From Candidatus Zambryskiibacteriota bacterium (GTDB taxonomy: Bacteria; Patescibacteriota; Minisyncoccia; Phycocordibacterales; WO2-35-19), in contig CAWJAC010000006.1 of the NCBI GenBank assembly GCA_963840745.1, forward strand, positions 97,947-161,946: a stretch of 64,000 nucleotides of DNA. The letters are read 5' to 3'. This document shows, in pieces, positions 18,701 through 60,315 of this stretch. The notes beneath the pieces were generated by a model. That model worked only from the letters and a program-made list of their open reading frames with translations, was not told where the DNA came from and ran no database searches. A program made the translations under genes and the position numbers. Every line of letters begins with the position of its first letter. Position 1 is the first letter of the stretch.

Positions 18701-18755
18701 TTCTTGAATCCTTTGACCAAACCTCTCTTTGGGGGGTTTGGGATTAAGGATTTAT

Positions 18756-19295
18756 ATGAAAACCGCTTCTAAAATTTTGGAAAAAGTAATTTATACCATA
18801 ATAATTTTGGTTGCGGTGTTGCTCGTCTGGTCTATTTTGCCAGTCAAAAATGGCCCCAAAATTTTAACGGTACTTTCTGGTTCAATGGAACCGGCGATTC
18901 ATACAGGCTCCGTGGTGGTTATAAAACCAGAAAGCATATACAAAGATGGCGACGTAGTTACATTTGGTCCGGATACAAAAACTCAAATACCAACCACTCA
19001 CCGCATTGTTTCCAGTCGAGTACAAGATGGGGTGATGATATTTAAAACTCAAGGCGATGCCAATAATGCTCCAGATAGTACAGAAATACGCCAAAGCGAT
19101 ATTCACGGCAAAGTTTTGTTTGATATTCCTCTGGCAGGTTATATAATTGATTTTGTCAGAAAGCCATTGGGTTTGGTTTTGGTCATTGTCTTGCCGGCCA
19201 TTTTTATTGTTTGTGATGAAGTCAGGAAAATAATGGGAGAAGTGAAAACCCTTCGACAAGCTCAGGGTAAAAAAACAAATGAAGAAAATAAATAA
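18756..19295 (+). CDS. Signal peptidase I, SipW/archaeal (S26B) type
   Basis: SGSMEPAIHTGSVVVIKP (catalytic Ser), THRIV (His) and a C-terminal TM helix. AAGGA RBS sits before the ATG at 18756. Confidence 0.85.
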   Translation: MKTASKILEKVIYTIIILVAVLLVWSILPVKNGPKILTVLSGSMEPAIHTGSVVVIKPESIYKDGDVVTFGPDTKTQIPTTHRIVSSRVQDGVMIFKTQGDANNAPDSTEIRQSDIHGKVLFDIPLAGYIIDFVRKPLGLVLVIVLPAIFIVCDEVRKIMGEVKTLRQAQGKKTNEENK

Positions 19296-20670: not shown

Positions 20671-21797
20671 AAAAACTTTTAATTCCAATTTTATTTTTCC
20701 TTCCTCTCTCGGCTTTTGCAGTTGCTGCTACACCTTTAATTGTTCATTTTCAGAATGAACCGCTTCCACTTTTCAACGAAGCTAATTTTGCGCCTGGAAA
20801 TGAAGTGACCCGCACCGTTGATGTTTCTAATAATTCTGGAACGCCGCAAGATATAATTGTTGAAGCCATCAATGCTACTAATGCCGGCGGTCTTGGAGAC
20901 AAATTAAATTTGATTATTAAAGAAGGGGACACCATACTATATAACAAAACACTGGGGGCATTTCTTAGCGCTGGCGAGGTTCCGCTTTCATCGCTTTCTA
21001 ATGATGCCAGCACCACTTACTCATTTAATATTATATTTGCAAGTGACGCCGACAATAATTTGCAAAATAAAACGCTCGGTTTTGATTTGTGTGTTGGCTT
21101 TAGCGGGGGAGACAGGCATTGTGGCGATACTGTGATAGGTGGTGAAGGCAATACCGACAGCGGGGGGACGAGCAGTACAGGAGAAACTATTTCTGGTACG
21201 GGAAGCAGTGGGGGAGGCGGAGGCGGTTCTTCCGGCGGTACTCATCAATTGATTATTTCCAATGAAAAAGCTACCGTTTCCGGCACGACAGTTATCATCA
21301 CTTGGGATACAAATTTGCTAGCGACCAGTCAAGTTATTTTTGGTCCTGTTTCTACCGGTCCATATAATTTAAATTTAACACTACCAGATATTGGTTTTGG
21401 CTATCGATTTTATACAGGAGAAAATTCAAATAAAGTTATAAATCATTCAATATCTTTGGTTGGTCTTGAACCGGGCGATTATGTTTATAGAGTGGTTTCT
21501 CGCGCTTCGCCTCCAACGGTAAGTTACGAACACGAGTTCACTATACCGATACCGGTTTTGGCTCAAAATGGTGGCGGAAATGGCCGAGCAATTGGTGAAA
21601 TACTTGGAGCAAGTTCTCAAAATAATTCCACTTCTACCGCTACGACAACCAGCACATCAACTTCTTCAGAAAATGTTTTAGGAAATAGTCTCGCCGCCGC
21701 TTTTTCTGCCGGCTGGTTTTCGTGGTGGTGGTTTTGGATTCTACTTATACTTTTGGCGATTTATCTTATATGGAAATTTGTTTTAAAAAATAAATAA
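20667..21797 (+). CDS. Cell-surface protein: TasA-like beta-sandwich N-domain, Gly/Ser linker, FN3-like domain, C-terminal Trp-rich TM anchor
   Basis: Signal peptide; FAPGNEVTRTVDVSNNSGTP; GSSGGGGGGSSGG linker; C-terminus WFSWWWFWILLILLAIYLIWKF. ATGA overlap with the upstream gene. Confidence 0.6.
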   Translation: MKKLLIPILFFLPLSAFAVAATPLIVHFQNEPLPLFNEANFAPGNEVTRTVDVSNNSGTPQDIIVEAINATNAGGLGDKLNLIIKEGDTILYNKTLGAFLSAGEVPLSSLSNDASTTYSFNIIFASDADNNLQNKTLGFDLCVGFSGGDRHCGDTVIGGEGNTDSGGTSSTGETISGTGSSGGGGGGSSGGTHQLIISNEKATVSGTTVIITWDTNLLATSQVIFGPVSTGPYNLNLTLPDIGFGYRFYTGENSNKVINHSISLVGLEPGDYVYRVVSRASPPTVSYEHEFTIPIPVLAQNGGGNGRAIGEILGASSQNNSTSTATTTSTSTSSENVLGNSLAAAFSAGWFSWWWFWILLILLAIYLIWKFVLKNK

Positions 21798-22436: not shown

Positions 22437-23351
22437 CTAAAGCTTTACGGCGTCGCCTGCGGCTATATTATTTTGATGATAAAGACCATCAGTGCAATCG
22501 CCGGCTGCCCATATTCCATCCAAGCTTGTTCTCTGATTTTTGTGATCAATTTTTATGCGTTTGAATTCGTCCATTTCAACTAAGCCTTCAGCAAAATCGG
22601 TTGAGGGATTGTGGCCGATTTCTACAAATATGCCGTCTGTTTCAATTTCAACATTGTCTACAAAAGGCGCAGTTCTCTGATAAACTAGAGATTTTACAAA
22701 GTTACCTGCCCTGAGCTTGTCGAATGGGTCGCCTTTTATTTCAACTGGTGTGGCATTTGTCACAGCTTTCATTTTTGGATTGGCTAGCACTTTTTCAACC
22801 GTCACAGGATCGGCGCGGAATTCGCCTCGGTTTATCAAGGTTACGCTTTTACAATAGGCGAGAAGTTGGGCCGCCGATTCAAAACCGGCATTACCGCCTC
22901 CTATAACAACTACATTTTTGTCTGCAAAAAACGGTCCGTCGCAGGAAGCACAGTAAGTAATGCCTTTGCCTTCAAATTCTTTGGCCCCCGGGTATTTCCA
23001 ATTTTTTCCTGGAACTCCAGTGGCCATTAATACTGTTTTGGTTTTATAGTATCTTTATTTGTAGTGACAACAAATCCATTATCTATCTTTTGCTACTTTT
23101 TTCACTTTTTCGCCCTCTTTTATATCAACAAAACTATCGGCATATTTTTTAACATGTTCTTTAAATTTTTTAGCGAGATCGACACCTGAAATAGCTGGCG
23201 TGCCTATCCAGTTTTGAATTTCGTTTGATTCAACCGACTGACCGCCAAAACTTCCGGCAATAAGAAGTGTCTTTATTTGCTTTCTGGCCGCATAAACTCC
23301 TGCCGCCGCTCCCGCCGGCCCACCTCCTATAATAATTAAATCGTAGTTCAT
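22437..23351 (-). CDS. trxB: Thioredoxin-disulfide reductase (two apparent frameshifts, about 23034-23046 and 23076-23087)
   Basis: IIGGGPAGAAAG FAD motif, redox CASC, GGGNAGFE NADPH motif. The missing segment DNGFVVTTNKDTIK / TKTVLMATG is readable in the other frames. Confidence 0.85.
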
Positions 23352-23446: not shown

Positions 23447-24603
23447 TTATTTAAGTTTTGATCTTCTCAAAAATGCAGGCACGGCGCCCCATTCATCATC
23501 GTCATCTATAATATTTTGTTTTTTCTCTTCCGGTTCTTCTTCTTTTTTATCTGATTTTTCATTTCTAAATACGGAATTAAATATTTTACCTTTGCCGTTT
23601 TCTGTCTCTCCTGCGCCTTTGTCTCCAAACAAATTGCTTTTCGTATAATTTTCTGGAAAACCGGAAGCGATAACGGTAATTTTTATCTCACCCTTTTTGA
23701 GTTTATCATCGCGGACGGTACCGAATATTATTTTAGCGTTTGGATCTACCGATTCGGTAATAAATTTGGCGGCATCGTGTATTTCAAACATTGTCAGATC
23801 ATCGCCTCCGGCAATTGAAAAGAGTACTCCTTTGGCGCCATTTATGGAAACTTCAAGAAGTGGGGAATTGATGGCCAATTTAGCCGCTTCCTCAGCTCGT
23901 TTCTCACCGCTAGCTCTGCCTATGCCCATCAAAGCTCCGCCGGCGCTTTCCATGATGGCCCGCACATCGGCAAAATCTATATTTATAATTCCGGGCATGG
24001 TGATGAGGTCGGAGATGCCTTCCACAGCTTGTTTCAATATGTCATCGCACATGGCAAAAGCGTTTTTGGCAGAGGTTTCTTTATCAATAGTAGCAAGCAG
24101 TCTATCATTTGGAATAACGATTAAAGCATCAACTGACTGCCGAAGCTCTTCAAGCCCGCTTCAGCCAGCCGCATTTTTTGCTGGCCTTCAAAAGAGAAAG
24201 GTTTAGTTACGACTCCAACTGTCAAAGCGCCTAATTCTTTAGCGGTACGAGCGATAACGGGACCGGCTCCGGTGCCGGTGCCTCCCCCGGATCCATAAGC
24301 AATGAAGACCATATCGGCTCCTTTGATAGCTTCCTGTATTTCTTCTTTGGTTTCTTCTACCGCTCGTTTACCAAGTTCCGGATTCATGCCGGTACCCAAA
24401 CCTTTAGTTAAATTTTTTCCTATGTGTATTTTCTTTTTGGCTTCTGAATGATGCAGGTCTTGAGCATCTGTGTTTACTGCAATAAATTCCACTCCTCTCA
24501 CTTTGGAGTTAATCATATGATTAACGGCATTTTTGCCGGAACCTCCGACGCCTATAACCTTTATTCTAGCAAAGACTTCTACTTCTGGTTTTATTTGAGG
24601 CAT
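23447..24603 (-). CDS. ftsZ: Cell division GTPase FtsZ (one apparent frameshift near 24146-24160)
   Basis: [11 protein letters not shown] and [11 protein letters not shown] tubulin signatures. A 1-nt shift restores ...[24 protein letters not shown]... Confidence 0.9.
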
Positions 24604-28926: not shown

Positions 28927-30069
28927 TTAAGCTAATCCTTTTATTCTAGCCGCCAGATCGCAGATGGGAACGATTTCTTGAGCGCGGCTAGCAGTGTTGC
29001 GGATGACAACTGAATTTTCCAGCGCTTCTTTTTGGCCGATAAGAATGATGTACGGAGCTTCAGATACTTCTGCCGCACCTATTTGACCGCCCAATTTATC
29101 TTTGGCGATCGAGTGGATGACGCTTGTTCCTACTTTATAAAGCTCTTCTAATACAATAAAACTTTTTAATTTAGCTTCAGGGCCGAACTGAACCAAGTAA
29201 AACTGAGGTTTGGTTATTTTAATTTTTGTTTTCTTTAAATTTTTCTTGAGTCTGGAAGAAATATTCAAAACAGTGCCCGGCAAATCTTTTTTGCAGCCTA
29301 TTTTTTTGGCCAACCTATTAAAGCGGAAACCGTAAGCTAATTCTTCATTACCATCTTTTATGGAAAAGATGGTTTCTGATCCGATATCCGGATCACCGAC
29401 TAATGAATGGTTTATGTTGTAGGAAATATCCATAGCTTCCAAAAATTCAAGCACTTCTTTGAAATGCAATCGGCTCGATTCGGACAAAAAGTCTATTGAC
29501 TTGGGACATTCGGCTTCAAAACTCTGCCATTCCTCTTTGCATTCCCGAAGCACCGCAAACAAATCTTTCTTGACCGCTTGTCTCAAGTCGGCTGAAAAAG
29601 AATTTATGTTTTTTCTCACGAACAAAGCTAGCTTTTTTTGAAATTCATTTTCTGAATCTTTGTCTCCAATTGAATTTATCTGCACCTCAAGATTTTTGTA
29701 GCCCAAACTGTTTAATATCGCTAAGCCGGTTTGGATTGAGAGACATTCGCAAACACTTTTGGACGAGCCCAAAGAAACGAGAGCGCATTCAAGGCGTTTT
29801 GGCTTCTTATTTTCATTTGACCCACGGAGAGGCCTTTCGCAATAAAACATGCTTGGCTGTGGCATAGACATCATTTTTTCTTCAAAATACATGCGTAAAA
29901 AAGCCGCCTTTTCTTCCGGATAGCTAGACTGATTAAAATCTTTAGCATGATCAATATCTTGTTTTTCTATTGTTGGAGGAACGATTGGTTGAAAGCCGTA
30001 AAATTTTGCAATTTTTCCGACTGCTGTCGTCTCTTTAGCGCATCTGTCTTGAATTGGTTTGTGATCCAT
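28927..30069 (-). CDS. Histidyl-tRNA synthetase-like protein with degenerate catalytic motifs
   Basis: HisRS-like architecture (FYGFQPIVPPTIEKQD, MFYCERP, INSIGD) and a HisRS-type anticodon-binding domain. The GRxREFxQ, RGLDYY and GGRYD motifs are not conserved. Confidence 0.55.
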   Translation of the reverse strand: MDHKPIQDRCAKETTAVGKIAKFYGFQPIVPPTIEKQDIDHAKDFNQSSYPEEKAAFLRMYFEEKMMSMPQPSMFYCERPLRGSNENKKPKRLECALVSLGSSKSVCECLSIQTGLAILNSLGYKNLEVQINSIGDKDSENEFQKKLALFVRKNINSFSADLRQAVKKDLFAVLRECKEEWQSFEAECPKSIDFLSESSRLHFKEVLEFLEAMDISYNINHSLVGDPDIGSETIFSIKDGNEELAYGFRFNRLAKKIGCKKDLPGTVLNISSRLKKNLKKTKIKITKPQFYLVQFGPEAKLKSFIVLEELYKVGTSVIHSIAKDKLGGQIGAAEVSEAPYIILIGQKEALENSVVIRNTASRAQEIVPICDLAARIKGLA

Positions 30070-33436: not shown

Positions 33437-35610
33437 ATGCCTCAAAAAACCAAAATAAAGCACATTTATAAGAAGATTAAAAAACGCAACGGTCGGATTG
33501 TTCCGTTCAAAAAAGAAAAGATTGCAACTGCTATAGGCAAGGCTGGAGCGGCAACGGGAGAGTTTGATATTGATAAGGCCGAAGAGCTGACCGAAAGAGT
33601 TTTGTGGCTCACTCGTGACAGGATTGACGGAGCCATTCCTGAGGTTGAACAAATACAGGACTTTGTGGAGGAGATTTTGCTTGCTTCACCTTACAAAAAG
33701 ACCGCTAAAGCCTACATCCTTTACCGTGATCAGCATAAAAAAATAAGGGAGATAACCAATACTTCCAGTGTTGATCTTATGGATCAATATTTGAGTAAAT
33801 TGGACTGGCAAGTTAAGGAAAACAGCAATATGGCTTATTCTCTCCAAGGACTTCACAATTATATTTCGTCCGAAATAAGCAAAGTTTATTGGCTCAATAA
33901 AATCTACCCCGAATCCATCAGAGATGCTCATACAAACGGCGATTTTCATTTGCATGATTTGAGCATATTGTCTGTTTATTGCGTTGGTTGGGATTTGTTT
34001 GATCTGTTACTTGAAGGATTTACCGGAGTTGAAGGCAAAATTGAAAGCAAACCGCCAAGTCATTTACAATCAGCTCTCGGACAAATCGTAAATTTCTTTT
34101 ACACTTTGCAGGGAGAAGCGGCTGGTGCTCAGGCTTTCAGCAATTTTGACACTTTGCTGGCACCTTTTATCCGCTACGACAAAATGACTTACAAAGAAGT
34201 CAAGCAGGCACTTCAGTCATTTTTGTTCAACATGAATGTCTCGACTCAGAGTCGGTTTTCAAACCCCATTTACAAACGTTACTCTAGATTTGAATGTGCC
34301 TAAATATTTCAAGAAACAATCGGTTATAGTCGGCGGCAAGTCTCAAAAAGAAACTTACGGAGAATTTCAGGAGGAGATGGATATATTCAACAAAGCTTTC
34401 CTTGAAGTGATGGCCGAAGGAGACGCCAAGGGTCGAGTTTTCACTTTCCCTATACCGACATACAACATTACCAAAGATTTCGATTGGGACAATAAAAATA
34501 TCTCTTTGCTTTGGGATGTGACGGCCAAATACGGTTTGCCTTATTTTTCAAATTTTATAAATTCAGAAATGAGTCCGGAAGACGCCCGCTCAATGTGCTG
34601 CCGCTTGCGCATTGACAATCGCCAGCTGGAACATCGCGGCGGCGGACTCTTTGGCGCTAACCCTCTGACCGGTTCGATCGGTGTCGTTACCATCAATTTG
34701 CCTCGCCTTGGCTATAATGCCAAAAACAAAAAACAATTTATCACTGCTCTCAAAGAACTTATGGTTCTGGCAAAAGAGAGTCTTGGAAATAAAACGCAAA
34801 ACTTTGGAGAGATTTACAGATAATAATTTATATCCGTATACTAAATTTTACTTAAGGGCAATAAAGGATGGGTTTGGATGCTATTGGAAAAACCATTTTT
34901 CAACCATCGGCATAGTCGGTATGAACGAAGCGGTGGAAAATCTCTTGGGTAAAAACATCGCTACTCCCGAAGGCAAGAAGTTTGCCGAGGAAGTTCTTGA
35001 CTTTATGCGCGACACTCTGGTTTCTTTCCAAAAAGAAACAGGCAATAATTACAATTTGGAAGCCACTCCGGCCGAAGGCACTTCTCACCGTTTGGCCCTC
35101 ATTGACCGCAAAAAATGCGATAATATTATTTTTGCCAATGGCCGCGGCAAAGAAACCAAAGATCCTTTTTACACCAACTCGACCCATTTGCCTGTTAATT
35201 TCACTAACGATATGTTTGAATTGCTTGATCTGCAGGATAATCTTCAAACAAAATACACTGGCGGTACAGTTATTCATTTTTTCCTCGGTGAAAAAGTAAG
35301 TGATAGCTCAAGTTTGAAAAATTTGGTAAAGAAAGTATGCGAAAATTACCATGTGCCTTATTTTACTTTCACTCCAAGCTTCAGTATTTGCAAAACTCAC
35401 GGCTATATTTCAGGAGAAAACTACACTTGTCCGACATGTGGAGAAAGTTGCGAAATATATTCACGAATTGTCGGCTACCTGCGGCCGATAAGCCAGTGGA
35501 ATGAGGGTAAAAGAGCAGAGTTTGATATGCGCAAAAAATTTGACGTCCCAGTGCCGATCGTCCCGCTGCCGAAATTGTCTTCTGTTGAAAGCTTTTCCCT
35601 TAATTCATGA
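33437..35610 (+). CDS. nrdD: Anaerobic ribonucleoside-triphosphate reductase NrdD (two apparent frameshifts, about 34250-34258 and 34782-34786)
   Basis: ATP-cone (KRNGRIVPFKKEKI), C-terminal Zn site CPTCG and glycyl-radical motif RIVGYLRP. Three overlapping ORFs are collinear with NrdD. Confidence 0.9.
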
Positions 35611-47931: not shown

Positions 47932-48004
47932 GCCGGCATAGCTCAGTTGGTAGAGCGCCACTTTTGTAAAGTGGATGTCCGGGGTTCGAACCCTCGTGCC
48001 GGCT
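47932..48004 (+). tRNA. tRNA-Thr (anticodon TGT)
   Basis: Acceptor GCCGGCA/TGCCGGC, anticodon stem CCACT/AGTGG with loop TTTGTAA, T loop TTCGAAC. Confidence 0.9.
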
Positions 48005-48008
48005 CAGA

Positions 48009-48734
48009 TTAATTCATCTTGGTAGAAGTGGCTTCTTTGGGGGTTGAACTTGCGGCTTGCTCCGCGGCTTTTTGGGCGTCGATGGCTTTGAGGTCAGGAA
48101 TGGCCGTTTTAACATCATCAATAGACTGGAAACCATAATGAACGGTGTCATCAATGAGAAGCGCCGGCAAGTTATATTTTATTTTATAGATTGATACAAT
48201 AGCTCCCACGGCAGAAAGATCTAAGTTGTAATCAAAAGAATAGACTCTAAGTTCCGGATAATCCTCCCGCAATTTGGTCAAAACGAAGCCTTCTTTTTGG
48301 CAATCGGAGCAATCACCTTTGTTGGAGTAGAAGTAAATTATAGAAAGAGTTTTTTTGCCGCATCTATCAAATATTTTTTGGGCTAAGAGATAATCTTTAA
48401 TCTCTAGAAGCGAATAATATTTTTTTAGATTGATGACTTCCGGATCATTGGTGCCTCGGCTTTGTTCGGTGTAGGAAAGTTTGTCGCCAAGATCGGAAAT
48501 CTCTTGGGCAAGAGAAGAACCACTAATGTCTTTGCATGAAAGTTCTGAGAGCAAAGAAAATTGAGTTTCTGAAGATGATATGTCAACTGATATTTGGCTT
48601 TCTATGTTTTGAATTTCATTTATTTTCTTTTGACTAAAATAATTACTGGCAAAAATAGCCGTAGTGAAAATAGCGGCTGTAATGAGAAAAGTATATGCGT
48701 ATTTTTTCCATTCCATATCTTTATCGCCACTCAT
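48009..48734 (-). CDS. Membrane-anchored thioredoxin-fold protein (CxxC)
   Basis: N-terminal TM helix and a CSDC motif in a Trx-like context (FYSNKGDCSDCQKEG). Ser/Thr/Ala-rich tail. Confidence 0.45.
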   Translation of the reverse strand: MSGDKDMEWKKYAYTFLITAAIFTTAIFASNYFSQKKINEIQNIESQISVDISSSETQFSLLSELSCKDISGSSLAQEISDLGDKLSYTEQSRGTNDPEVINLKKYYSLLEIKDYLLAQKIFDRCGKKTLSIIYFYSNKGDCSDCQKEGFVLTKLREDYPELRVYSFDYNLDLSAVGAIVSIYKIKYNLPALLIDDTVHYGFQSIDDVKTAIPDLKAIDAQKAAEQAASSTPKEATSTKMN

Positions 48735-49956
48735 TTTCTTTAGAAAAGACTACATTGTAAATGGCTTTGGTCATCCAAAGGGGAGCAAGCATGGCGTAAA
48801 ATAGCACAAAAAGGAGGCTATCTAGGCCGATTTTATTTTTCTCTTCTGCTAAATTTCTTGAAGTTATAATTATTAAAAGAGTTCCTAAAATTGCGACAAT
48901 AGAGACAAAAACAATTACATTTGTATCCACATAGAAAAAATCAAAATTAAAACCTCGCCAAGAGAGACCGACTGTGGAAATTTCTTTCATTTTAACAAGT
49001 AAAGAATTGACCCAATCAAAAACGGCAGCGCCGAAAAAGTATATGGTGGAAAAAACAGAGAGGCCGGCTGCCGGCAACACCACCATTCCCAAATTTCCAT
49101 ACTGTGGTTTGAAAAACATATCTCTATAATCGATGGCATTCTTAAGAAAACCATAAACCCAGCGCAAACGCTGCCTGTAAAGAGCTTTGATGCTGGTTGG
49201 AGCGATAGTATAGATAAAAGCATTATGAACATTGCTGATTTTCATATTATTTTTTTGCATACGCATAGCAATTTCCATATCCTCGGTATTATGGGCATGT
49301 TTGTATCCGCCTATTTTTTCAAAAACCGACCGGCGAAAAATTGAAAAAGGTCCCGGTGTTATATAAAGAGCATTTAAATAACAAAAAACTTTTCGCAGGA
49401 ATATACCAAATATGTATTCGGCTTTTTGAATAAGACCCAGTATACCTTTCGGCTCAAATATTTTGATGGAAGGAGTGACAGCCATAATTTCACTATCTTC
49501 AAATCGGACTACAATTCTCCTTAAAGCTTCAGGATGAACAAATGAGTCTGCATCAAGGCAGCCGACAAGTTCGGAATCCACGAATTCCAGAGCGTAATTT
49601 AAGGCTGTATGCTTGCCGCCATTTTCTTTTTTCAAAAGCTTTATTTGTTTGTTCTTGGTAAATCTTTGAATTATTTTCCAGGTATTGTCAGTGCTGCCAT
49701 CGTCCACAATAAAAATAGAAAGTTTGTCTTTGGGATAATTGAGCCTAAGAAGCGAAAAAATGGTCTTGAGCACCGTAGTTTCTTCATTCCAAACAGGTAC
49801 TATAATAGAGACACTTGGCCATTTGTTTAATGATGGCAGGATTGAAATTTTCCTCTCTTTTTCTTTAAATTCAAAGTAGGTGATTAGAAAAAACACCTCA
49901 AAATAGAGTGCAATAAAAAGGAAAATATAGGTAATAGTTTCCGAAACCAGATGCAT
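48721..49956 (-). CDS. Family 2 processive beta-glycosyltransferase (PgaC/cellulose/chitin-synthase-like)
   Basis: DDGSTD, DADS, TEDME and QRLRW (Q-x-x-R-W) motifs, with flanking TM helices. Confidence 0.8.
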   Translation of the reverse strand: MHLVSETITYIFLFIALYFEVFFLITYFEFKEKERKISILPSLNKWPSVSIIVPVWNEETTVLKTIFSLLRLNYPKDKLSIFIVDDGSTDNTWKIIQRFTKNKQIKLLKKENGGKHTALNYALEFVDSELVGCLDADSFVHPEALRRIVVRFEDSEIMAVTPSIKIFEPKGILGLIQKAEYIFGIFLRKVFCYLNALYITPGPFSIFRRSVFEKIGGYKHAHNTEDMEIAMRMQKNNMKISNVHNAFIYTIAPTSIKALYRQRLRWVYGFLKNAIDYRDMFFKPQYGNLGMVVLPAAGLSVFSTIYFFGAAVFDWVNSLLVKMKEISTVGLSWRGFNFDFFYVDTNVIVFVSIVAILGTLLIIITSRNLAEEKNKIGLDSLLFVLFYAMLAPLWMTKAIYNVVFSKENEWR

Positions 49957-49984
49957 GTTTAGATTGTAGTATACTTTTTAATAT

Positions 49985-51172
49985 TTAGCGAATTTTCGCT
50001 TCGTAAGCTTCGGCTGTTTTTTGCTCCAATTTTTTGTGCATTGTGTCAACCTCGGTGCTAGTTAAAGTCCCTTCAAGGGAGCGATAAACAATCCTGTAAG
50101 CATAACTTATTTTGTCTTTGCCAATTTTTGCTTCATTTTCATATTTATCAATCATTTTTACCTCCTCAACAATATCTTCCCCGATTGTTTCCCGGATCAA
50201 ATCAAAATAATTATTTGGTACGAAATCCTTGCCCACCACAAAGGAAATATCGCGGACTACGGGCGGATATTTACTGACTTCTTTGTATTTTTGGCCGAGT
50301 TTAAGCTGTTTTTTGACCCGAGCATCTTCTGACCAAAGAAGCCTTATATCGGGCAATTCCATGCTGATCAGGGCCAGTCTTTCAAGTCCAAAACCAAAGG
50401 CCCAGCCGTTATAAATATTTGAATCTACACCAAGATTATCCAAAACTTTGGCCTTGACCACACCACTGCCCAAAACTTCTACCCATTTGTCGTCTTTTTC
50501 AATTTCCATTTCCAAGCTTGGAGTTGTGAACGGAAAAGTGTCTTCGTTGAATTTATATTTCACATCTTTACCGAAGACCGCTCGAGCAATTTCAATCAAC
50601 ACATTTTGTAAATCTTCGGTAGTAATAATTTTTTCGTCTTTGCGACAAAGAAACCAACCATCAATTTGATGGAAAACATTCATATGGTGTCGATCTATTT
50701 CGTCTTTTCTATAAACTTTACCATAACTGAAACAACCAACACTTTCTCCTTTTTTTATTCTCTCTTTGATTTCTGGAAGCTCCGTGTAGTAATACCACAT
50801 TATGGTAGTGTGAGTGCGTAAAATATGCTCGTCATCCGTATAATAAGTATCTGATTTGCTTCTGGTGGGATGATCTTTTGGAAAATCAAATAAATCAAAA
50901 CTAATATCAGCCGGCACTATTTCAGGATTTTTAATGACATCAAGATTGGACATTTCCGGAATATTCAAAATTCTCTGGACAATTTCGTATATGGGGTTGC
51001 CGGGAGCACGCGACAAGTCTGGCATACTTAAATAGCGCTTCATGCGCATAGCATCGGCGTCTTCTCTTTTATCCAGACTTTTAATCAGGGCTTCTTCCTG
51101 CCCGGCCGGCACTTCGTATTGATTTCTTTGCATAACCTTCATTCTAAATAAAAACGTGCTAAAATTCAACAC
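49985..51172 (-). CDS. pheS: Monomeric (mitochondrial FARS2-like) phenylalanyl-tRNA synthetase: PheS catalytic core fused to an FDX-ACB anticodon-binding domain
   Basis: HPTRSKSDTYY, FHQIDG and GWAFGFGLERLA class II motifs. The C-terminus KYPPVVRDISFVV...YAYRIVYRSLEGTLTSTEV closely parallels the human FARS2 C-terminal domain. Confidence 0.8.
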   Translation of the reverse strand: MLNFSTFLFRMKVMQRNQYEVPAGQEEALIKSLDKREDADAMRMKRYLSMPDLSRAPGNPIYEIVQRILNIPEMSNLDVIKNPEIVPADISFDLFDFPKDHPTRSKSDTYYTDDEHILRTHTTIMWYYYTELPEIKERIKKGESVGCFSYGKVYRKDEIDRHHMNVFHQIDGWFLCRKDEKIITTEDLQNVLIEIARAVFGKDVKYKFNEDTFPFTTPSLEMEIEKDDKWVEVLGSGVVKAKVLDNLGVDSNIYNGWAFGFGLERLALISMELPDIRLLWSEDARVKKQLKLGQKYKEVSKYPPVVRDISFVVGKDFVPNNYFDLIRETIGEDIVEEVKMIDKYENEAKIGKDKISYAYRIVYRSLEGTLTSTEVDTMHKKLEQKTAEAYEAKIR

Positions 51173-51802
51173 ATGGATTCGACAAGCTCACCACAAGTGT
51201 ATAAAAAAGGCTTTTCTTCAGATGAATTCGAAGAATTAAAAGATTCCATTATTGAACAAGGTTTTGAATATAAAAAAGTGAAAGTGGAGGATGCTCTAAG
51301 AGAAACCATTCCTTTTTGTATGGATGCCGTTTATAAAAATCCGTCTTCTATGCGTACCGATGCTCCGCAAGCTTTCAGTTGTTCATCTCTTATAAGCTAT
51401 CTTTATGTGCAAGCCGGAGTTTGGATGCCATCGCTCTCTATTGATAAATATGTTTTTGGCACTCCCATATCAAAAGAGGAATTGAAATATGGTGATCTGA
51501 TTTTTTCAAACAGCGGTAACGGTCGTGTCAGATACGAAACAGTTGAATATTTGCCGGAAACCAAAGTACCCGACGGTGTTGATCATGTCGGTATGTATTT
51601 GGGAAAAAACAAAGTAATTCACGCCACAAAAAAACACGAAAAAGTAGTAATAGAAACTCTGGATGATTTTAGAAACACTTCAAAAATAGTGGGATATAGA
51701 AGAGTGGCTGATATTGACGAGGAAAGATATGTGGTATCCATGCCAGACGACAGAGTTGATTTGTTAAAAAAGAGTAGCAAAGCGCTTGTAAATTTGCTAT
51801 AA
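51173..51802 (+). CDS. NlpC/P60 (C40) family peptidase
   Basis: Catalytic Cys context FSCSSLISYLY, then GDLIFS and HVGMYLGKNKVIHA. Confidence 0.75.
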   Translation: MDSTSSPQVYKKGFSSDEFEELKDSIIEQGFEYKKVKVEDALRETIPFCMDAVYKNPSSMRTDAPQAFSCSSLISYLYVQAGVWMPSLSIDKYVFGTPISKEELKYGDLIFSNSGNGRVRYETVEYLPETKVPDGVDHVGMYLGKNKVIHATKKHEKVVIETLDDFRNTSKIVGYRRVADIDEERYVVSMPDDRVDLLKKSSKALVNLL

Positions 51803-51812
51803 TGAAAGGGTA

Positions 51813-53873
51813 ATGGCAAAAGAAATTAAGGTTAAAAAGAGCAGTTATAGCGCCGAAAACATTACTGTTTTGGAGGGGCTAGAGCCGGTGCGCCGAAGGC
51901 CGGGGATGTACATTGGCACCACCGGTCCGGATGGTTTGCATCATTTGGTAGTGGAAATTTTTGACAATTCCCGTGATGAAGCGATGGGTGGTTTTGCGAA
52001 TGATATTGAAGTAGCCTTCCTTCCTGGCAATCGCGTTAGGGTAGTTGATAATGGTCGCGGCATTCCCGTTGATATTCATAAACAGACAAAAGTTTCAGCC
52101 CTTGAGACAATTATGACCACTCTCCATGCTGGAGGAAAATTTGGAGGAGAGGGTTACAAAATTTCCGGTGGTTTGCACGGAGTGGGAGCTTCGGTAGTAA
52201 ATGCTCTCTCTGTTTATATGCGCGCAGAAGTTCATAAAGATGGAGGAATTTATGTCCAAGAATACTCAAAAGGTAAAAAGAAAGCGTCTGTAAAAAAAGT
52301 CGGCTCTTCAAAATTGCACGGTACCATCATCACTTTTGAGCCGGATCCGGAAATATTTAAAGAAGGAGTAAATTTTGATTTTGAAAGAGTAGTCTATCAT
52401 ATGCGTCAGCAGGCTTATTTGGTCAAAGGTCTCAAAATATCCGTTTTGGATTTCAGAGAAACCAAAGAAAAAATAAAAGATACCGAAACTTTTTATATGA
52501 GGGATTTGGGATTGGAGGCTCCGTCAATGACATTCTACTTTGACGGCGGGCTGGTTTCTTTAATACGATTTTATAATCACAACTCAGAAACCGATCCATA
52601 AAAATATTTTTTATGTTGAAAAGACAAACGAAAATTTTGAAGGCGTAGAAGTGGCTCTGCAGTATGTGGATGATATTTCGGCGCGCATTATGCCCTTCGC
52701 CAACAATATTTATACCAGTGAGGGCGGCACCCACACTACCGGCTTCAAGACGGCTCTAACTAGAACTTTAAATAATTATGCCAAGAAAAACAATCTTGCT
52801 AAAAACGGAGATGATGTTTTTACAGGAGATGATGTCTTGGAAGGATTGACTGCTGTCATTTCAATCAAGCTGCGAGAAGTGCAATTTGAAGGCCAAACCA
52901 AAGCCAAACTCGGCAGTGTGGAAGCTCGCGGTATGGTAGAGAGTATTTTTGGAGAAGCTTTTGACGCATTCTTAGAAGAAAATCCCGACGACGCCAGAGC
53001 GATTATTAATAAAGTTGTTTTGGCTCTGCGCGCACGCAAGGCGGCTAAAGCAGCCAAAGATTCAATTTTGAGAAAAGGAGCTTTGGAAGGTATGACACTT
53101 CCGGGCAAACTAGCCGATTGTCAGAGCAAATCAGCAGAGGAATCCGAGCTCTTCATTGTGGAGGGAGACTCGGCCGGAGGCACTGCCAAAACAGGCCGAG
53201 ATAGGAAGAATCAGGCTATATTGCCTTTGCGCGGCAAGATTTTAAATATTGAAAGAGCGCGACTTGACCGTATGCTCGGTTCGGAACAAATTAAAAATTT
53301 GGTGGTGGCTCTTGGCACAGCCATAGGAGATACTTTTGATTTGTCTAAATTCGTTATCATAAAATAATTATAGCTACCGATGCCGACGTGGACGGCGCTC
53401 ATATTCGTACTCTCATTCTGACTTTGTTTTATCGATATTTCAGGCCGATTATTGATGGGGGATTTATTTATATCGCTCAGCCGCCTCTTTATAAAATTAA
53501 AAAGGGTAAAGAAGTACATTATGCTTACAGTGATGATGAGAAGGCTAGAATTATTGGGCGTTCCAGTGCCGAGGTTGACGAGATTGAACTTCCCGCTGCC
53601 GAAGTTGATCGTTCCGCTGCCGATGTTGACGAGTCTGAAAGCACTTCCAAAACTCCTAAAGTTTTAGTCCAGCGCTACAAAGGTCTCGGAGAAATGAATG
53701 CCGAAGAACTTTGGGAGACCACTATGGATCCAAAGAGACGCATCTTAAAACAAATAGCAGTTGAAGACGCTCAGGAAGCCGACCGCATTTTTGATGTGCT
53801 CATGGGCTCCGACGTCCCCGCTCGCAAATCTTTCATCCAGTCCAACGCTAAGCTGGCAACTATTGATATTTAA
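51813..53873 (+). CDS. gyrB: DNA gyrase subunit B (two apparent frameshifts, about 52586-52590 and 53347-53353)
   Basis: GHKL ATPase motifs ([22 protein letters not shown]) and Toprim ([17 protein letters not shown]). Three collinear ORFs. Confidence 0.95.
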
Positions 53874-54236: not shown

Positions 54237-55327
54237 ATGAAAAAGAAAATTAAAGTAGGCATTCTCTTTGGGGGCAAATCAGCTGAACACGAGGTATCTT
54301 TGCAGTCGGCAAAAAATGTAGTTGACGCCATTGATAAAGACAAGTATGAAGTTGCTCTTATAGGAATAGATAAAACGGGTAAATGGCTACTTCCAAATAA
54401 ATCCCAATTTTTGCTTAATGCAAATGACCCAAAACTGATTAAATTAAACAAAGCAAGCGAGGAAAGCGTTGCCCTTGTCCCACAAAGCGGTGGTGAATTA
54501 ACTAATCTATCAAACCAAAACTCAAATTATTCCGTAGATGTCGTTTTTCCAATACTACACGGTCCGTTTGGAGAGGACGGCACAGTTCAGGGGCTACTAA
54601 AATTGGCGGGAGTTCCTTTTGTTGGGGCAAGTATCCTTGGCTTGCGATTGGAATGGATAAAGATGTGATGAAAAGATTGCTACGAGATGCTAATATTCCT
54701 ATTGCTGATTTTCTCGCTTTCAAACGGAAAGACAAGATTAATTTTGAAGAAATATCAAAAAAATTAGGACTTCCGTTTTTTGTTAAGCCAGCTAATCTTG
54801 GTTCTTCCATTGGAATTAACAAGGTGAAAAACAAAAAAGATTTTCCAAAAGCTGTAAAAGAAGCATTTCAATATGATACAAAGATTATCATTGAAGAATA
54901 TATTCTCGGCAGAGAGCTTGAATGTTCTGTGCTGGGCAATCAAAACCCGGTTGCTTCTGCTGTAGGAGAAGTGATACCACATCAAGAGTTTTATTCTTAT
55001 GAAGCAAAATACATAGACGAAAATGGTGCTACCCTCGAAATACCTGCCAAAATAAATTCCAAAACTGTTAAAGGTGTTCAGGAACTAGCAATAAAGACAT
55101 TCAAAACTCTTTCTTGTGAAGGATTAGGTAGAGTAGATTTCTTTTTGAAAGATAACGGAAAATTGATTGTAAATGAAATAAATACAATTCCCGGATTTAC
55201 AAAAATCAGTATGTATCCTCGCCTTTGGGGAGCCAGTGGTATTTCCTATACAGAACTCATAAATCGTTTAATTGAACTCGCGATTGAGCGTTTTAAGCGA
55301 GAACAAAAAATCAAAACTTCTTATTAG
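54237..55327 (+). CDS. ddl: D-alanine--D-alanine ligase (apparent frameshift about 54638-54646)
   Basis: GGKSAEHEVSLQSA, ATP-grasp motifs GSSIGI and EINTIPGFT. Two collinear ORFs. Confidence 0.9.
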
Positions 55328-55340
55328 TAAAGATAAATTA

Positions 55341-57094
55341 TTATTTCTTTTCTTTGATTTCTTTTTGGAGGAGATCCAAGAATTTTTCTGCTGGCATTGA
55401 GCCGAGTTTTTTACCTTCACCATCACCGCGCACTTCAACTGTGACTTCTTTTGATTCAACCTCTTTATCACCAAGCACTATCCAGTAAGGAATCTTTTCA
55501 TTTTTGGCAGCACGGACTTTTTTGCCTAAATTTTCATCCTCCAAATCAACTTCAGCTCTGATGCCATTTTCTTTCAGCAAATCATAAACTTCTTGTGCAT
55601 AAGCATTGTGAGATTCCGCACCGGTATCACTTTAACCTGCATGGGCGAGAGCCAAAGAGGAAAGTTGCCGGCGTAGTGTTCAATAAGTATTCCCATAAAT
55701 CTTTCAAATGAACCAAAAATGGCAACATGCAAAACAACAACCCGGTGTTTTTTACCGTCTTCACCGGTGTAATCCATATCAAAATTTTCCGGCTGATTAA
55801 AGTCCAGTTGTATAGTAGTCAGTTGCCATTCTCGGCCAATTGAATCTTTCACTTTTATATCTATTTTGGGTCCGTAAAACGCTGCTTCACCTTCTTCAAT
55901 ACTATAGGCTACACTCCATTTTTTAACTTGCTCAATTAAAATTTGCTCAGCTTTTTGCCAAACATCATCGGCCCCAAAATATTTTTCTTTATTTTTTGGA
56001 TCTCTTATCGAAACTTCTACTTTATAGTCATTGAAGCCAAAAATTTTATAAACTTTCTGCATTAACCCTAAAATCATTTCAATTTCGGATTCGATTTGAT
56101 CCCCACGAATAATGTGATGGGTATCATCTTGGCATAAACCTTTAACTCGCAGTAGTCCGGACAATTCTCCACTTTTTTCGTTTCTATAGACTGTTGTGTT
56201 CTCGGCTATGCGCAAAGGCAAATCACGATAACTGTGTGGCTCCGCGTTGTAAATTTCAAAATGATGCGGACAATTCATAGCTTTTAATACAAATTCTTCA
56301 CCATTGTCATCTTTCATAATCGGCATCATGGCGTCGTATTTACCCAAGTGGCCACTACGAATGTAGAGTTCTTTCCTGGCAATGTGGGGAATTGTTACAA
56401 AAGAATATCCAAGTTTTTCTTTTTCAGAACGGATGAAATTTTCCAATTCGGTCCGGATTATGTTGCCTTTTGGTAAATACATAGGTAAACCTTTGCCGAC
56501 TAATTCGGAAATAGTGAATAATTTCATTTCCTTGCCTAATTTTTTGTGGTCACGCTTTTCGGCCTCTTCTTTCATGTGCAGATATTCATCCAATTTTTCT
56601 TTTGATTCAAACGCCAAACCATAAATGCGGGTCAGCATTTTATTTTTCTCGTCTCCGCGCCAATAAGCGCCGGCGATTCTCTCAAGCTTCCAAGAATCTT
56701 TTGGAATTTCATCAGCGTCTGAGACGTGGCCACCAACACAAAGATCTGTGAACTCTCCGGAAGTATAAAAAGAAATATTTTGACCATCTTTTTCTAAATC
56801 TTTTATAAGTTCAAGTTTATATTCGTTTTTTTCAAAAAACTTTTTGGCTTCTTCTGTGCTCACTTCCTTGCCTTCAAATTTTACCCAAGTTTTCAAAACC
56901 TGCCTCATCTTATTTTCAATCTTTTCCAGATCATTTTCTGAAATAGGGGATGAAAAATCAAAATCATAATAAAATCCGTTATCAATGACCGGCCCGATGG
57001 TTGGCTTGGCATCCGGATACAGCTCCAGTACCGCAGCCGCCAGTAAATGCGCCAACGAATGCCTAACCTTCTCAATTTTTTCCTCTTTTGACAT
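55341..57094 (-). CDS. thrS: Threonyl-tRNA synthetase lacking the N-terminal TGS domain (apparent frameshift about 55616-55624)
   Basis: Starts at the editing-domain HSLAHLLA motif. Class II core (FRNE-like VYRNEKSGELSGLLRVKG). The anticodon-binding domain is split off by a 1-nt shift. Confidence 0.9.
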
Positions 57095-57103
57095 AAATAA
57101 ATA

Positions 57104-60100
57104 TTACAACTTCTTGGCTTTTTCGGCAATGAGAGTTTTTTCGCCATTGCGCAGGGAGACGCGGGCTTTGATGGCAATACATTGGTCGGGAACAAAGACG
57201 GAAGAAAATTCCTGCAGAACGCGGGGAAAACGACAAGTTCGATTTCGTCAGTCAAGTCAACAAATTTAATGAAAAACATTTTGTCTCCGTTTTTGGTCAA
57301 AATGTCTCGCATATTTTCGATGAGTCCGCCAACTATCACCACTTCGTTCTCTTTAGACTTTTCTTTTATATTTTTTATACTATTTTTTTGACTCCCTAAT
57401 TTGTCTTTAAATTGATCCAGTGGGTGGCCGGAGATGTACAAGCCTAAAAGTTCTTTTTCCCAAGCTAGCCGTTCGGCCACAGTAGCAGGATTTGATGGTA
57501 TTAAGTGCAAAGGCGAATATCCGGTTGTGGCAGCAAAAAGCGAACTTTGGTCCAGATTGGCCGCCGATTCTTTGCTGTATTCCAAAAGGATATCGGTGTT
57601 GGAAAGCAAAAGACCTCTTTCGCCAAAATTGTCAAAAGCGCCGGCTTTAACCAAAGCTTCCAGAGATTTTTTATTCAAATTTCTGTCTTGAATTCTAGTT
57701 AAAAAATCTTCAAGCGATTTAAACTTTCCTTTTTCTTTTCTTTCAGCAGTAATGATGTGGGAAATGCCTTCTCCAAAATTTTTGATGGTAGTTAGTCCAA
57801 ACCTAATAGTCTCGCCTTCATTTTTTATTTCTGATTCATTTTTCTTAACCAGAGTAAAATCAGAAAAACTTTCATTGATATCAGGTGGCAAAATTTCAAT
57901 ACCCATGCGCTTGCATTCGGTAATAGAAGTTGCCACTTTTTCGGTATCTCCCGATTCGGCTGAAAGTACTGCTCTCATGTATTCTCCGGGAAAATTAGCT
58001 TTGAGATACGCAGTCTCATAAGCCACTCGACCGTAAGAGACGGAATGGGCCTTGTTAAATCCGTAAGCGGCAAAAGGTTCTATCCAACTCCAAATTTGCT
58101 TGGCCTTTTTCTCGCTCCAGCTAGAATGTTCCATACATCCTTTGATAAATTTTTCTCTTTGCTTTTCCATTTCTTCCGGAATCTTTTTACCGACCGCTTT
58201 ACGGAATTTATCGACTTCGCCCCAAGTATAGCCAGCCAATTTGTTGGCCATCATAAGCAAGTCGTCTTGATAAACCAAAATACCGTAAGTTTTTTCAAGT
58301 ATGGGCTCCAGAGCCGGATCAAGATAAGTGATCTTTTTGGGGTCATGTTTGCGAGCAATATAATCGGGAATAAATTGCATCGGTCCTGGACGGTAAAGGG
58401 CCACCATAGCATTTATGTCATGGATGGCTGTGGGCTTGAGTTCCACCAAAAATCTGGTCATACCGTCACCGTTGAGCTGAAATAGGTCTTCAGTTTCGCC
58501 TCGAGCCAACATCTCAAAAGTTTTTTTATCGTTAATGGGCATTTTGTCCAAATCTATCTCTACTCCTTTGGTTTTTTTAATAAGTTCAAGAGTAGCCGCA
58601 ATAATAGAAAGGTTTTTAAGCCCCAAAAAATCAAACTTCAAAAGTCCGGCGGCATTTTCATCAATACTATACATATCGTACTGAGTGATTATTTTTCCCT
58701 CGCCTTTGGGATCGTATTGAAGGGGAGTGAAGTCGGTCAAATCAGTCGGGCTAATGACCACGCCAGCTGCATGGACACCAATATGGCGCGCGCAGCCTTC
58801 TATTTTTTTTGCCATATCTATAATTTTTTTTGAATCCGGATCTTTTTTATAGAGTTCCGTAAGCTCCGGCACTTCATTTAAGGCACGATCAATGGTCATA
58901 GGGAAACCTTGCTGACCCATGGGTATGAGTTTGGCTATCCTGTCTCCGATTGTATAAGCGAAACCGAGCGCCCGAGCCGTATCGCGCACAGACCCTCGAG
59001 CCATCATTGTGCCGAATGTTCCTATCTGGGCAACTTTATCTTCGCCATATTTATGTTTTACATATTCAACCATTTCGTCACGCCTATCGTCAGCAAAGTC
59101 CATATCAATATCTGGAGCAGAAGGCCGATCTGGATTTAAAAATCTTTCAAAAGGTATTTCGTACTCAAGCGGATTTATATTTGTAATGTGAGCGGCATAA
59201 GTTGCAAGAGAACCGGAAACCGAGCCTCTGATATTAGTTAAAATACCATGCTCGTGAGCATAATTCATAAGATCAGCCACTACCAAAAAGTAAGGTGAAT
59301 AGCCTTTCGTTTTTATAACATTAAGCTCATATTCTAATCTCTCTATCACTTCCTTGCTTTTAGGAAGCCCGCGATCTTCCAATCCATCATAAGCAAGATC
59401 GTGTAATTCATCATCATAACTTTTTCCTGACTCGACTTTAATGTCAGGAAAAGACCATTTACCAAGTTCCAGTTCAAGATTGCAGAGAGCGGTTATTTTG
59501 TGATTATTAAAAATAGCTTCTGGATAATTTACAAATCTCTCCTTAACCTCTGCTTCGGAAATAAAAGAAAAGTCTTCATCTTCATTATTCCAAGCTCCTC
59601 TTTCTGCCCCGATGGCCATCGGGGCACCTTGGCTTACAGCCATAAGAGTATCTTTAGCTTCTTTATCTTCTGGTGCAATGTAATAAACATCATGACAGGC
59701 CACAATAGGCAGCTCTTTTTCTTTGGCAAACTCGGTCAATGTATTCATGTGTTCGTTATGGCCGATAAGCTCCGGATGCATAGTGATTTCAATATAAAAA
59801 TCGCCACCATCATCATTTGAAAAAATTTTCTTATACTTTTGCACTAATTCATTGGCCAGCTCAATATTTTTATTCCTAAGAGCAGTAGAAATATCTCCGC
59901 TCCAAGATGAAGAAATGCAAATGAGCCCTTCTTTATATTTTTCCAAAAGTTCAAAATCAATGCGAGGTTTGTAATAAAATCCTTCTAAATAGGATGCCGT
60001 CACCAGCTTCATTAGATTTTTATATCCAATCTCATTTTTGCAAAGCAAAATTAATCTGAACCTGTCTTTATCAACACCGGCCTGCTTATCAAAACGGGTG

Positions 60101-60315
60101 CGGCTGGCTAGGTATGCGTCAACTCCAATAATTGGTTTAATACCAGATTTTTTGCACTCCTTATAAAACTCAATGGCGCCGTACATATTACCATTATCCG
60201 TAAGCGCTAGAGTCTCCATCTCATTTTTTTTGGCCGCTTCAATAAGCTCTGGAATTTTGGGTAAAGCCTGAAGGAGGGAATAGTGGGAATGGGTGTGTAG
60301 GTGAGTGAATTTCAT
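57104..60315 (-). CDS. dnaE: DNA polymerase III alpha subunit DnaE (apparent frameshift about 57220-57230)
   Basis: PHP domain FTHLHTHSHYSLL and a PolIIIA core. After a shift at ttttcccc the C-terminus reads ...VVFPRVLQEFSSVFVPDQCIAIKARVSLRNGEKTLIAEKAKKL, stopping at 57104-57106. The track ORF extension to 56905 is an artefact. Confidence 0.95.

Follow-up and report, generated by a model that had tools for sequence, protein, structure and literature searches.

A 64,000-nucleotide stretch of DNA from a Candidatus Zambryskiibacteriota bacterium (assembly GCA_963840745.1, contig CAWJAC010000006.1), referred to here as the window, carries on its reverse strand a gene whose product resembles the single-chain, mitochondrial form of phenylalanyl-tRNA synthetase (PheRS). 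The window is a compact bacterial segment of ~40% GC, and its housekeeping genes include prfA, rpsB, tsf, gyrB, ddl, thrS, dnaE, ftsA/Z, tRNAs, and others. The host is an ultra-small Patescibacteria (Parcubacteria/Paceibacteria) bacterium, and the PheRS gene, set among Patescibacteria housekeeping genes, is genuinely bacterial. A first-pass annotation, made from the letters of the DNA, had assigned to this gene a 395-aa open reading frame (ORF); both the ORF, which runs from a GTG codon across 49985..51172 (minus strand), and the peptide strings quoted from it were recovered upon translation.

The GTG at 51172 abuts the start codon of a divergent NlpC/P60 gene at 51173, and homologues of the protein are 378-382 aa long, with their alignment beginning at about residue 14 of the 395-aa ORF. 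Because of these features, and because a promoter-like element lies upstream of the ATG at 51133 (Met14), the true start is most likely this ATG, which would give a coding sequence of 49985..51133 (minus strand), or 382 aa plus the stop. The element itself, TTGAAT-17-TAGAAT (51141..51169, minus strand), ends 7 nt before the ATG and is a consensus match only; the region contains 5 such sites versus 6.0 expected from shuffles, a number not above chance. If used, it would imply a leaderless or very short-leader mRNA for the PheRS gene. A separate short-read assembly (Logan ERR10755942, L001) is the same as window positions 47985-51880 at 99.97%, with zero gaps.

The protein begins with a helical extension (residues 14-58; 50999..51133, minus strand), seen in alignments and in the helices of an AlphaFold2 model. 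This extension is specific to the patescibacterial clade, carries an 'RMKRYLxMPDLSR' motif, and shows the lowest conservation within the protein (49% mean identity). It is followed by a class II PheS-type catalytic module at residues 59-289 (50306..50998, minus strand; Pfam tRNA-synt_2d, PF01409, E 4.7e-55) and by an FDX-ACB (B8-type) anticodon-binding domain at residues 300-395 (49988..50275, minus strand; Pfam PF03147, E 9e-21), an order that bears out the fusion of a PheS core to FDX-ACB previously described for this gene. The same Pfam scan found no PF02912 (the PheS N-terminal domain), PF03483, PF03484, or PF17759. The FDX-ACB domain matches the C-terminus of the TIGR00472 pheT_bact model (positions 693-798). 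The best match to the protein in PDB is human mitochondrial PheRS (E ~1e-56, HMMER), and the HMMER alignment reproduces the motif-for-motif match to the C-terminal domain of the human enzyme, FARS2, that had been noticed earlier.

Family models place the protein near, but outside, the mitochondrial group. Its top NCBIfam match is SrmL, the 'PheS-related mystery ligase' (NF051887), at 244.8 bits, a score that does not reach the cutoff of 300. The protein scores 235.6 bits with TIGR00469 (pheS_mito), under the curated cutoff of 258.35, and 163.7 bits with TIGR00468 (canonical pheS), under the cutoff of 237.45. A 64%-identical relative, P0121, passes TIGR00469 at 264.3, and the clade thus straddles the cutoff. 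As judged from these scores, the protein is by NCBI's curated rule a sister clade of the pheS_mito equivalog rather than a member, and it appears to be neither a canonical PheS nor an SrmL. All of its 120 best relatives, drawn from thousands of candidates, possess both domains and measure 351-417 aa, with 64-89% identity, the longest of their contigs reaching 923 kb. Their sources are labelled Candidatus Zambryski-, Lipton-, Sung- or Yanofskybacteria, Paceibacterota, or Patescibacteria group, and they are annotated as 'hypothetical protein' by NCBI and as 'PheRS alpha chain' by JGI.

The residues expected of a PheRS active site can be followed through the chain: Arg155 of motif 2, F167-H168-Q169-x-D171, F213-P-[F/Y]215-T216-x-P-S219-x-E221, and, in motif 3, G256-W-A258-F-G-x-G-x-E-R265. 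Among 131 patescibacterial sequences, R155, F167-H-Q, F213, [F/Y]215, T216, S219, E221, G256-W-A258-F-G, and R265 are invariant or nearly so. A258 aligns with A294 of the Escherichia coli enzyme and T216 with E. coli T251 and human Thr235, which are the positions that determine Phe specificity (PMC3275996). The AlphaFold2 model, built from an alignment of 34 sequences, has a predicted local distance difference test (pLDDT) score of 94.5 and a predicted template modelling (pTM) score of 0.90. When this model was compared with PDB using Foldseek, the only full-length matches were to the closed state of human mitochondrial PheRS (3CMQ; template modelling (TM) score 0.76/0.73, root-mean-square deviation 3.4 A over 389 columns); the fit to 3TUP, the open state with bound tRNA, is poorer (TM 0.57), and canonical PheS chains match the core alone (TM ~0.53). 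Thus, the comparison with FARS2 structures that the first-pass annotation had suggested ends in a full-length superposition of the predicted model on 3CMQ. Architecture, fold, and active site together support the assignment as a monomeric, mitochondrial-type PheRS.

The position of the gene in related genomes indicates what it may have replaced. In a closed 923-kb genome (CP066690.1, locus L002), a 733-kb scaffold (L004), and one other locus (L005), the monomeric gene lies directly upstream of gyrB-(secE)-nusG-rplK. A metagenome scan with an alignment of PheT proteins that lack the B2 domain yielded a locus (L073) in which a Patescibacteria canonical pheS (335 aa) and pheT (693 aa) are found directly upstream of gyrB instead. 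This PheT has the B3_4, B5, CLM, and FDX-ACB domains without B2, and its relatives are labelled Patescibacteria, Yanofskybacteria, Paceibacterota, or Nealsonbacteria; the absence of B2 has been reported for many PheRS-beta proteins of the Candidate Phyla Radiation (CPR) (Mukai et al., PMC5370408). In addition, L112, L113 (on a 651-kb contig), and L114 share the order pheS-pheT-gyrB-secE-nusG-rplK-tmk-gatB...miaA...thrS...dnaE, which is the neighbourhood of the monomeric-type L004.

The two arrangements were counted in representative genomes of GTDB species by a scan anchored on NusG; of the first 599 matches to the pattern, the best 80, all Patescibacteria loci, made up the sample. Directly upstream of gyrB, the monomeric gene occurs in 10 of these loci and pheS-pheT in 27, and none has both. 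Outside the anchored set there are three further loci of each type, L002, L004, and L005 being monomeric and L112-L114 canonical. The monomeric share is about a quarter of the loci sampled. One of the 80 has a monomeric gene 4 kb downstream of rplK, and the remaining anchored loci either are without gyrB or have too little upstream sequence. It should be noted that organism labels on metagenome-assembled genomes (MAGs) are loose, and that some of the anchored loci are labelled 'Saccharibacteria', 'Gammaproteobacteria', or 'Bdellovibrionales', which is implausible given the identity of their NusG. A tRNA-Met/tRNA-Asp cluster is located just upstream of the slot in monomeric and canonical loci alike. 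Since both locus types have the same tRNA and gyrB flanks, the exchanged segment consists of exactly the PheRS gene(s).

In the window, the downstream flank of the slot is gyrB (51813..53873, plus strand), present as three frames that are all matched by phmmer with Patescibacteria GyrB. The NlpC/P60 peptidase gene (51173..51802, plus strand; Pfam PF00877), divergent from the PheRS gene, stands between it and gyrB; as the PheRS gene and gyrB are usually adjacent, this marks a local insertion or rearrangement. Farther along are thrS, split into 55341-55580 and 55574-57094 (minus strand; Pfam), and dnaE (56905-60315, minus strand; Pfam). These two genes are also found downstream on the opposite strand in the canonical-type L113 and L114, indicating wider synteny with the window.

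A different arrangement was seen in the canonical-type genome PMX_810_sub (PMC9600506 supplement, genes 00193-00197), in which pheT-pheS lies between rpsS and tRNA-Thr(TGT), away from gyrB; even canonical-type genomes therefore do not all use the slot. Adjacency to tRNA-Thr was considered as a mark of positional replacement and dropped, as other loci gave no support. As a separate matter, the gyrB ORFs next to the PheRS slot are long, 1080-1508 aa, in L002 (12174-15515), L116, L128, L129, L131, L158, and L190. The L002 gyrB has a Pfam intein-splicing match, and intein-containing gyrB seems to be common in these Patescibacteria.

The history of the slot was approached with a GyrB tree (neighbour-joining, 638 columns, 200 bootstraps), on which the monomeric and canonical states interleave. 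The monomeric L117 groups with the canonical L112-114 (bootstrap 93), and other groupings of mixed state are L164 with L171 (bootstrap 100) and L139 with L175/L144 (bootstrap 94); the Sungbacteria clade likewise holds both states. Furthermore, pairwise identity of the monomeric enzyme follows that of GyrB poorly (Spearman 0.18, 91 pairs); the corresponding Spearman values of PheT and PheS are 0.51 and 0.56, each over 351 pairs. The monomeric proteins fall into at least three subfamilies, the most divergent of which is 45-49% identical to the others. Canonical pheS and pheT thus look vertically inherited, and the monomeric gene resembles an invader that moves horizontally and has landed in the same slot time and again. 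It is the interleaving of states on the GyrB tree, together with the poor tracking of GyrB by the monomeric gene, that argues for repeated horizontal displacement in situ. A search for recombination tracts extending into the 5' part of gyrB gave a weak hint, with raised N-terminal identity in two pairs only (0.83 and 0.84 versus 0.70 and 0.72 overall), and the idea was dropped.

Whether the monomeric enzyme is the sole PheRS of its host bears directly on this displacement. The first-pass annotation had noted that no pheT is adjacent; within the entire 64-kb window, searches with the window protein and with Patescibacteria PheS and PheT found no other PheS- or PheT-like ORF, and the other monomeric-type loci, at locus level, contain no PheS or PheT. 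A PheT protein search was seeded with the PheT of Sungbacteria locus L136, which groups by GyrB with CP066690.1; among the best 120 matches, which extend down to 44% identity, none came from the 923,469-bp complete genome CP066690.1 or from other long contigs with the monomeric gene. The converse was seen in PMX_810_sub, a canonical-type Patescibacteria genome described by supplementary gene tables (PMC10936435 and PMC9600506). Its full gene table (PMC9600506 supplement) has entries for pheT (682 aa) and pheS and contains PF01409 and PF03147 once each; PMX_810_sub therefore has pheS and pheT and is without the monomeric gene. Given the combined slot and genome results, functional replacement of pheS-pheT is the best reading, on which pheT would be absent from the whole genome of the window organism. 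The earlier proposal that this lineage uses the minimal PheRS holds insofar as a bacterial monomer occupies the pheST slot; it does not hold for the lineage in its entirety. The monomeric gene occurs patchily, and pheST is kept by close relatives, among them other 'Sungbacteria' and 'Yanofskybacteria'.

The alternative that fares best is that the monomeric gene encodes an accessory second PheRS or paralogue, with pheS-pheT elsewhere in the genome, and that it serves as a stress-, toxin- or inhibitor-resistant spare or in a role outside translation. Bacteria sometimes carry duplicate aminoacyl-tRNA synthetase genes. In addition, MAGs with the same candidate phylum label carry either type (P0099 versus P0312), and the view of the source organism covers only part of its genome. 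However, the 37 anchored and 6 other loci hold one type or the other and never both, the canonical-type PMX_810_sub is without a monomeric gene, and no PheT of CP066690.1 appears among the 120 Sungbacteria-like PheT matches listed. Extreme conservation, in genomes reduced to ~0.6-1 Mb, also argues against a redundant spare. An accessory function is consequently considered unlikely.

The remaining alternatives concern the origin and identity of the protein, and they depend on the phylogeny of the family. In an exhaustive search of representatives, the Paceibacteria proteins collapse to essentially one cluster at 50% identity. The next-nearest sequences are a protein from an Oligoflexia MAG (42% identity), a pair of genetic code 25 proteins, many TIGR00469-type proteins, among them the mitochondrial PheRS of Branchiostoma and Salpingoeca, and the SrmL clade. 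A tree of the catalytic core, in which 22 canonical PheS were included (three of them from Patescibacteria), places all monomeric forms together and apart from every canonical PheS with a bootstrap of 100; joining the patescibacterial monomer to the canonical PheS of Patescibacteria has a bootstrap of 0. A tree of both domains (318 columns) separates the bacterial forms (Patescibacteria, Oligoflexia, code 25, and SrmL) from 73 eukaryote-type sequences with a bootstrap of 98. When 42 usable viral sequences were added, 40 joined the eukaryote-type clade, two joined SrmL, and none joined the patescibacterial clade; the patescibacterial/Oligoflexia/code 25 clade stayed separate, with a bootstrap of 88. 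The root within the monomeric family is contested by splits with bootstraps of 41 and 51; consequently, the ancient transfer between bacteria or viruses and eukaryotes may have gone in either direction.

Two of these relatives merit separate mention. The nearest relative outside the Paceibacteria (P0127; L023, 9463-10833, and L024, 154-1524) is encoded with 13 in-frame TGA codons; where the alignment was inspected (e.g. at the glycines of motif 3), these correspond to Gly in homologues. P0127 is therefore from a genetic code 25 lineage (Gracilibacteria/Absconditabacteria-type), and the database errs in translating these codons as Trp. An F-type ATP synthase operon is among the neighbouring genes. 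The Oligoflexia protein (P0124; L025, 10001-11245) is a bacterial-clade monomeric PheRS, 42% identical, encoded in the GC-rich MAG GCA_019694465.1 in a non-translational neighbourhood; the contig may be mis-binned.

Against this background, it was asked whether the window protein could be a member or equivalent of SrmL that ligates something other than Phe or acts on a substrate other than tRNA-Phe. NF051887 is, after all, its top NCBIfam match (244.8 bits), and the rooted core tree joins SrmL, although weakly (bootstrap 41-43), to the patescibacterial clade. True SrmL proteins score 376-447, however, and the window protein stays below the cutoff of 300. SrmL proteins also have a pocket of their own, H/Y-P/Y-Y-T-x-x-G and GLA[L/M]G, versus FPFT-PS and GWAFG in the window protein; they form their own clade with a bootstrap of 100, and the one context examined is phage-like rather than a housekeeping locus. 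An identity with SrmL is thus very unlikely.

That context belongs to the SrmL protein P0273 (L195, 7306-8403; L196, 1959-3056), which lies near a T5orf172 gene, a long series of small uncharacterised ORFs, and a gene for a protein of >1000 aa. It directly follows two genes that resemble aminoacyl-tRNA synthetases, one of the tRNA-synt_2 type and one faintly of the tRNA-synt_1d type. The arrangement suggests a virus-borne set of synthetase-like ligases.

Another alternative, given equally little weight, is that the gene arose by a local, convergent fusion of a patescibacterial pheS core to the B8 domain of pheT, for instance through loss of most of pheT in situ, and is unrelated to FARS2 by descent. 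The gene does occupy the same position as pheS-pheT in relatives. Furthermore, its FDX-ACB domain gives similar bit scores with Patescibacteria PheT C-termini (median 31, best 53) and with other monomeric forms (median 39), so that these scores do not discriminate between origins of the domain. However, as described above, the catalytic core joins all other monomeric forms at 100 and patescibacterial PheS at 0, and it lies as far from Patescibacteria PheS (mean distance 1.40) as from any other PheS. In addition, the linker and FDX-ACB are colinear with FARS2. Finally, the gene might be eukaryotic contamination, be mis-binned, or have come from a eukaryote very recently; contamination and recent transfer were named by the first-pass annotation as fatal to its case. 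This alternative is effectively refuted even though the best characterised homologues are eukaryotic mitochondrial enzymes, since the gene shares one contig with bacterial rpsB, tsf, prfA, gyrB, ddl, thrS, and dnaE, is reproduced in an independent assembly, has orthologues by the hundred on Patescibacteria contigs as long as 923 kb, is only 30-38% identical to eukaryotic enzymes, and belongs to a separate bacterial clade (98 and 88 in the two trees).

Taken together, these results have led to the view that the gene likely encodes the housekeeping, single-chain PheRS of the cell and that it is a non-orthologous, horizontally acquired replacement of pheS-pheT in the same slot. In this model, the PheS-type catalytic module would activate Phe with ATP and transfer it to tRNA-Phe, while the ferredoxin-fold, B8-type domain of the same chain would read the GAA anticodon, as the end of the beta subunit does in ordinary bacteria. 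By analogy with human mitochondrial PheRS, the enzyme would work as a monomer, with a closed resting state from which the anticodon-binding domain would swing open for the tRNA. Without a B3/B4 editing site, accuracy versus Tyr would, on the same analogy, depend on the synthetic site alone. The monomeric gene would stem from a branch of the FARS2/SrmL family that is old and bacterial, would have spread horizontally among Patescibacteria, and would have repeatedly displaced pheS-pheT between the tRNA-Met/Asp cluster and gyrB-secE-nusG-rplK. From the comparisons above we infer monomeric activity, specificity for Phe and tRNA-Phe, a lack of editing in vivo, genome-wide absence of pheST, and a recombination mechanism.

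Several points weigh on the other side. The bacterial members are known from sequence and models rather than from biochemistry. The window protein remains under the TIGR00469 cutoff and scores slightly better with the SrmL model (244.8 versus 235.6). A conserved Asp replaces the Glu of the canonical FHQxEG, a change that is also present in some members of the eukaryote/virus-type clade. All trees are neighbour-joining only (Kimura-corrected distances). In the window itself, the PheRS gene is inverted relative to gyrB, with the NlpC/P60 gene between them. Finally, the sequence covered is 64 kb of a 174-kb contig, so that a displaced pheST elsewhere in the genome is possible, and the absence of PheT from CP066690.1 is an indirect indication, drawn from the best 120 matches only and with genomes recognised by the lengths of their contigs.

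Among characterised systems, the closest is FARS2 (TIGR00469; 3CMQ, 3TUP), which is likewise a single chain made of a PheS module and B8/FDX-ACB and with which the full-length, closed-form fold agrees at TM 0.76. Both are without the coiled-coil N-terminus, the beta subunit, and the B3/B4 editing domain, and both have Thr at the position of human Thr235. The two differ in that identity is ~31-35% and in that the window protein has its own helical N-terminal extension ('MPDLSR') and no transit peptide. It also is without the ~30-residue insertion that animal enzymes have after motif 2, and it has a short insertion after RTHTT. Furthermore, it belongs to a separate bacterial clade and is a chromosomally encoded, apparently cytoplasmic enzyme. 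With canonical (alpha-beta)2 PheRS, including the Patescibacteria form that is without B2, the window protein shares the Phe pocket, the chromosomal slot, and, as predicted, the catalytic chemistry, and its FDX-ACB domain is homologous to the C-terminus of PheT; in contrast, it is without the PheS N-terminal, B1, B3/B4 (editing), B5, and CLM domains, and its gene is 1.15 kb long versus ~3.1 kb for pheS-pheT. SrmL has the same two-domain, single-chain layout at a similar length but differs in its remodelled amino-acid pocket and separate clade. The monomeric PheRS of huge phages and giant viruses has the same architecture, at ~340-385 aa and without a transit peptide, but is 27-41% identical to the window protein and is a virus-borne auxiliary rather than the occupant of a housekeeping locus. 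Of such viral forms, a TIGR00469-type monomeric PheRS is encoded on a 341-kb phage-like contig (L197, 8001-9047), and IMG/VR contains 47 loci (L198-L244) with a monomeric PheRS, many of them on huge-phage contigs of 100-540 kb and several in giant-virus MAGs. A scan of viral contigs with an alignment of Staphylococcus, E. coli, and Pseudomonas PheT returned ordinary PheST loci only.

Published accounts list three forms of PheRS and tie the monomer to mitochondria, the human mitochondrial enzyme being monomeric and without editing (PMC3275996). In full-text searches of the literature, no account of monomeric PheRS in CPR/Patescibacteria, or of SrmL, turned up. The architecture of a monomeric PheRS is thus known; what is unusual is the recurrent displacement, in situ, of an essential two-gene synthetase. 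The textbook 'organelle-only' monomer is also present, as a distinct bacterial clade, at a housekeeping locus of many Patescibacteria. This amounts to a natural experiment in which an essential, multi-subunit, proofreading synthetase has been swapped, recurrently and at one site, for a minimal enzyme free of an editing domain. The clade furthermore provides a sister group from outside the eukaryotes with which the origin of FARS2 could be rooted, with links to the homologues of huge phages and giant viruses and to the SrmL ligases, and it explains why these proteins are annotated as 'hypothetical' by NCBI. Marker sets that rely on pheS/pheT would be expected to under-score the completeness of monomeric-type genomes, and altered quality control of Tyr and meta-tyrosine (m-Tyr) is predicted in these organisms.

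A broader hypothesis, which is offered tentatively and is rather doubtful as a whole, holds that the single-chain PheRS is an old bacterial (and virus-borne) rather than eukaryotic invention with Patescibacteria as its cellular reservoir, and that FARS2 derives from such a bacterial or viral donor instead of having been remodelled from the pheS-pheT of the alphaproteobacterial endosymbiont. The gene would be a mobile, locus-specific cassette that has overwritten pheS-pheT many times, perhaps via recombination in the tRNA and gyrB flanks or via phages, and a sizeable fraction of these bacteria would decode Phe without editing.

Some further observations concern the window at large. Its essential genes are often broken into two or three adjacent frames, as in gyrB (51813-53873), ddl (54237-55327), thrS (55341-57094), ftsZ (23447-24603), dnaB (12771-14149), and trxB (22437-23351), and also at 9890-10967 and 33437-35610; the PheRS gene is intact. 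At least the gyrB frame junction falls on A5/T6 homopolymers. The split genes look like indel errors of a long-read assembly, unlike pseudogenes, although true frameshifts are possible. Thus, the assembly is imperfect, as the many frameshifted genes indicate, but the PheRS region is independently confirmed. A protein of 380 aa at 28927-30069 (minus strand) has only a C-terminal HGTP_anticodon match, with no class II core at E <= 1e-5, and may be a divergent His/Pro/Gly-type aminoacyl-tRNA synthetase or a HisZ-like paralogue. Elsewhere, a 916-aa protein (2445-5195) has a TraG/TraD-type C-terminal match, and a cluster of secreted-looking proteins, with N-termini resembling signal peptides, occupies 17739-21797 and adjoins what looks by sequence to be a putative signal peptidase (18729-19295). 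The TraG/TraD-type protein and this cluster could belong to a secretion, conjugation or pilus-related island.

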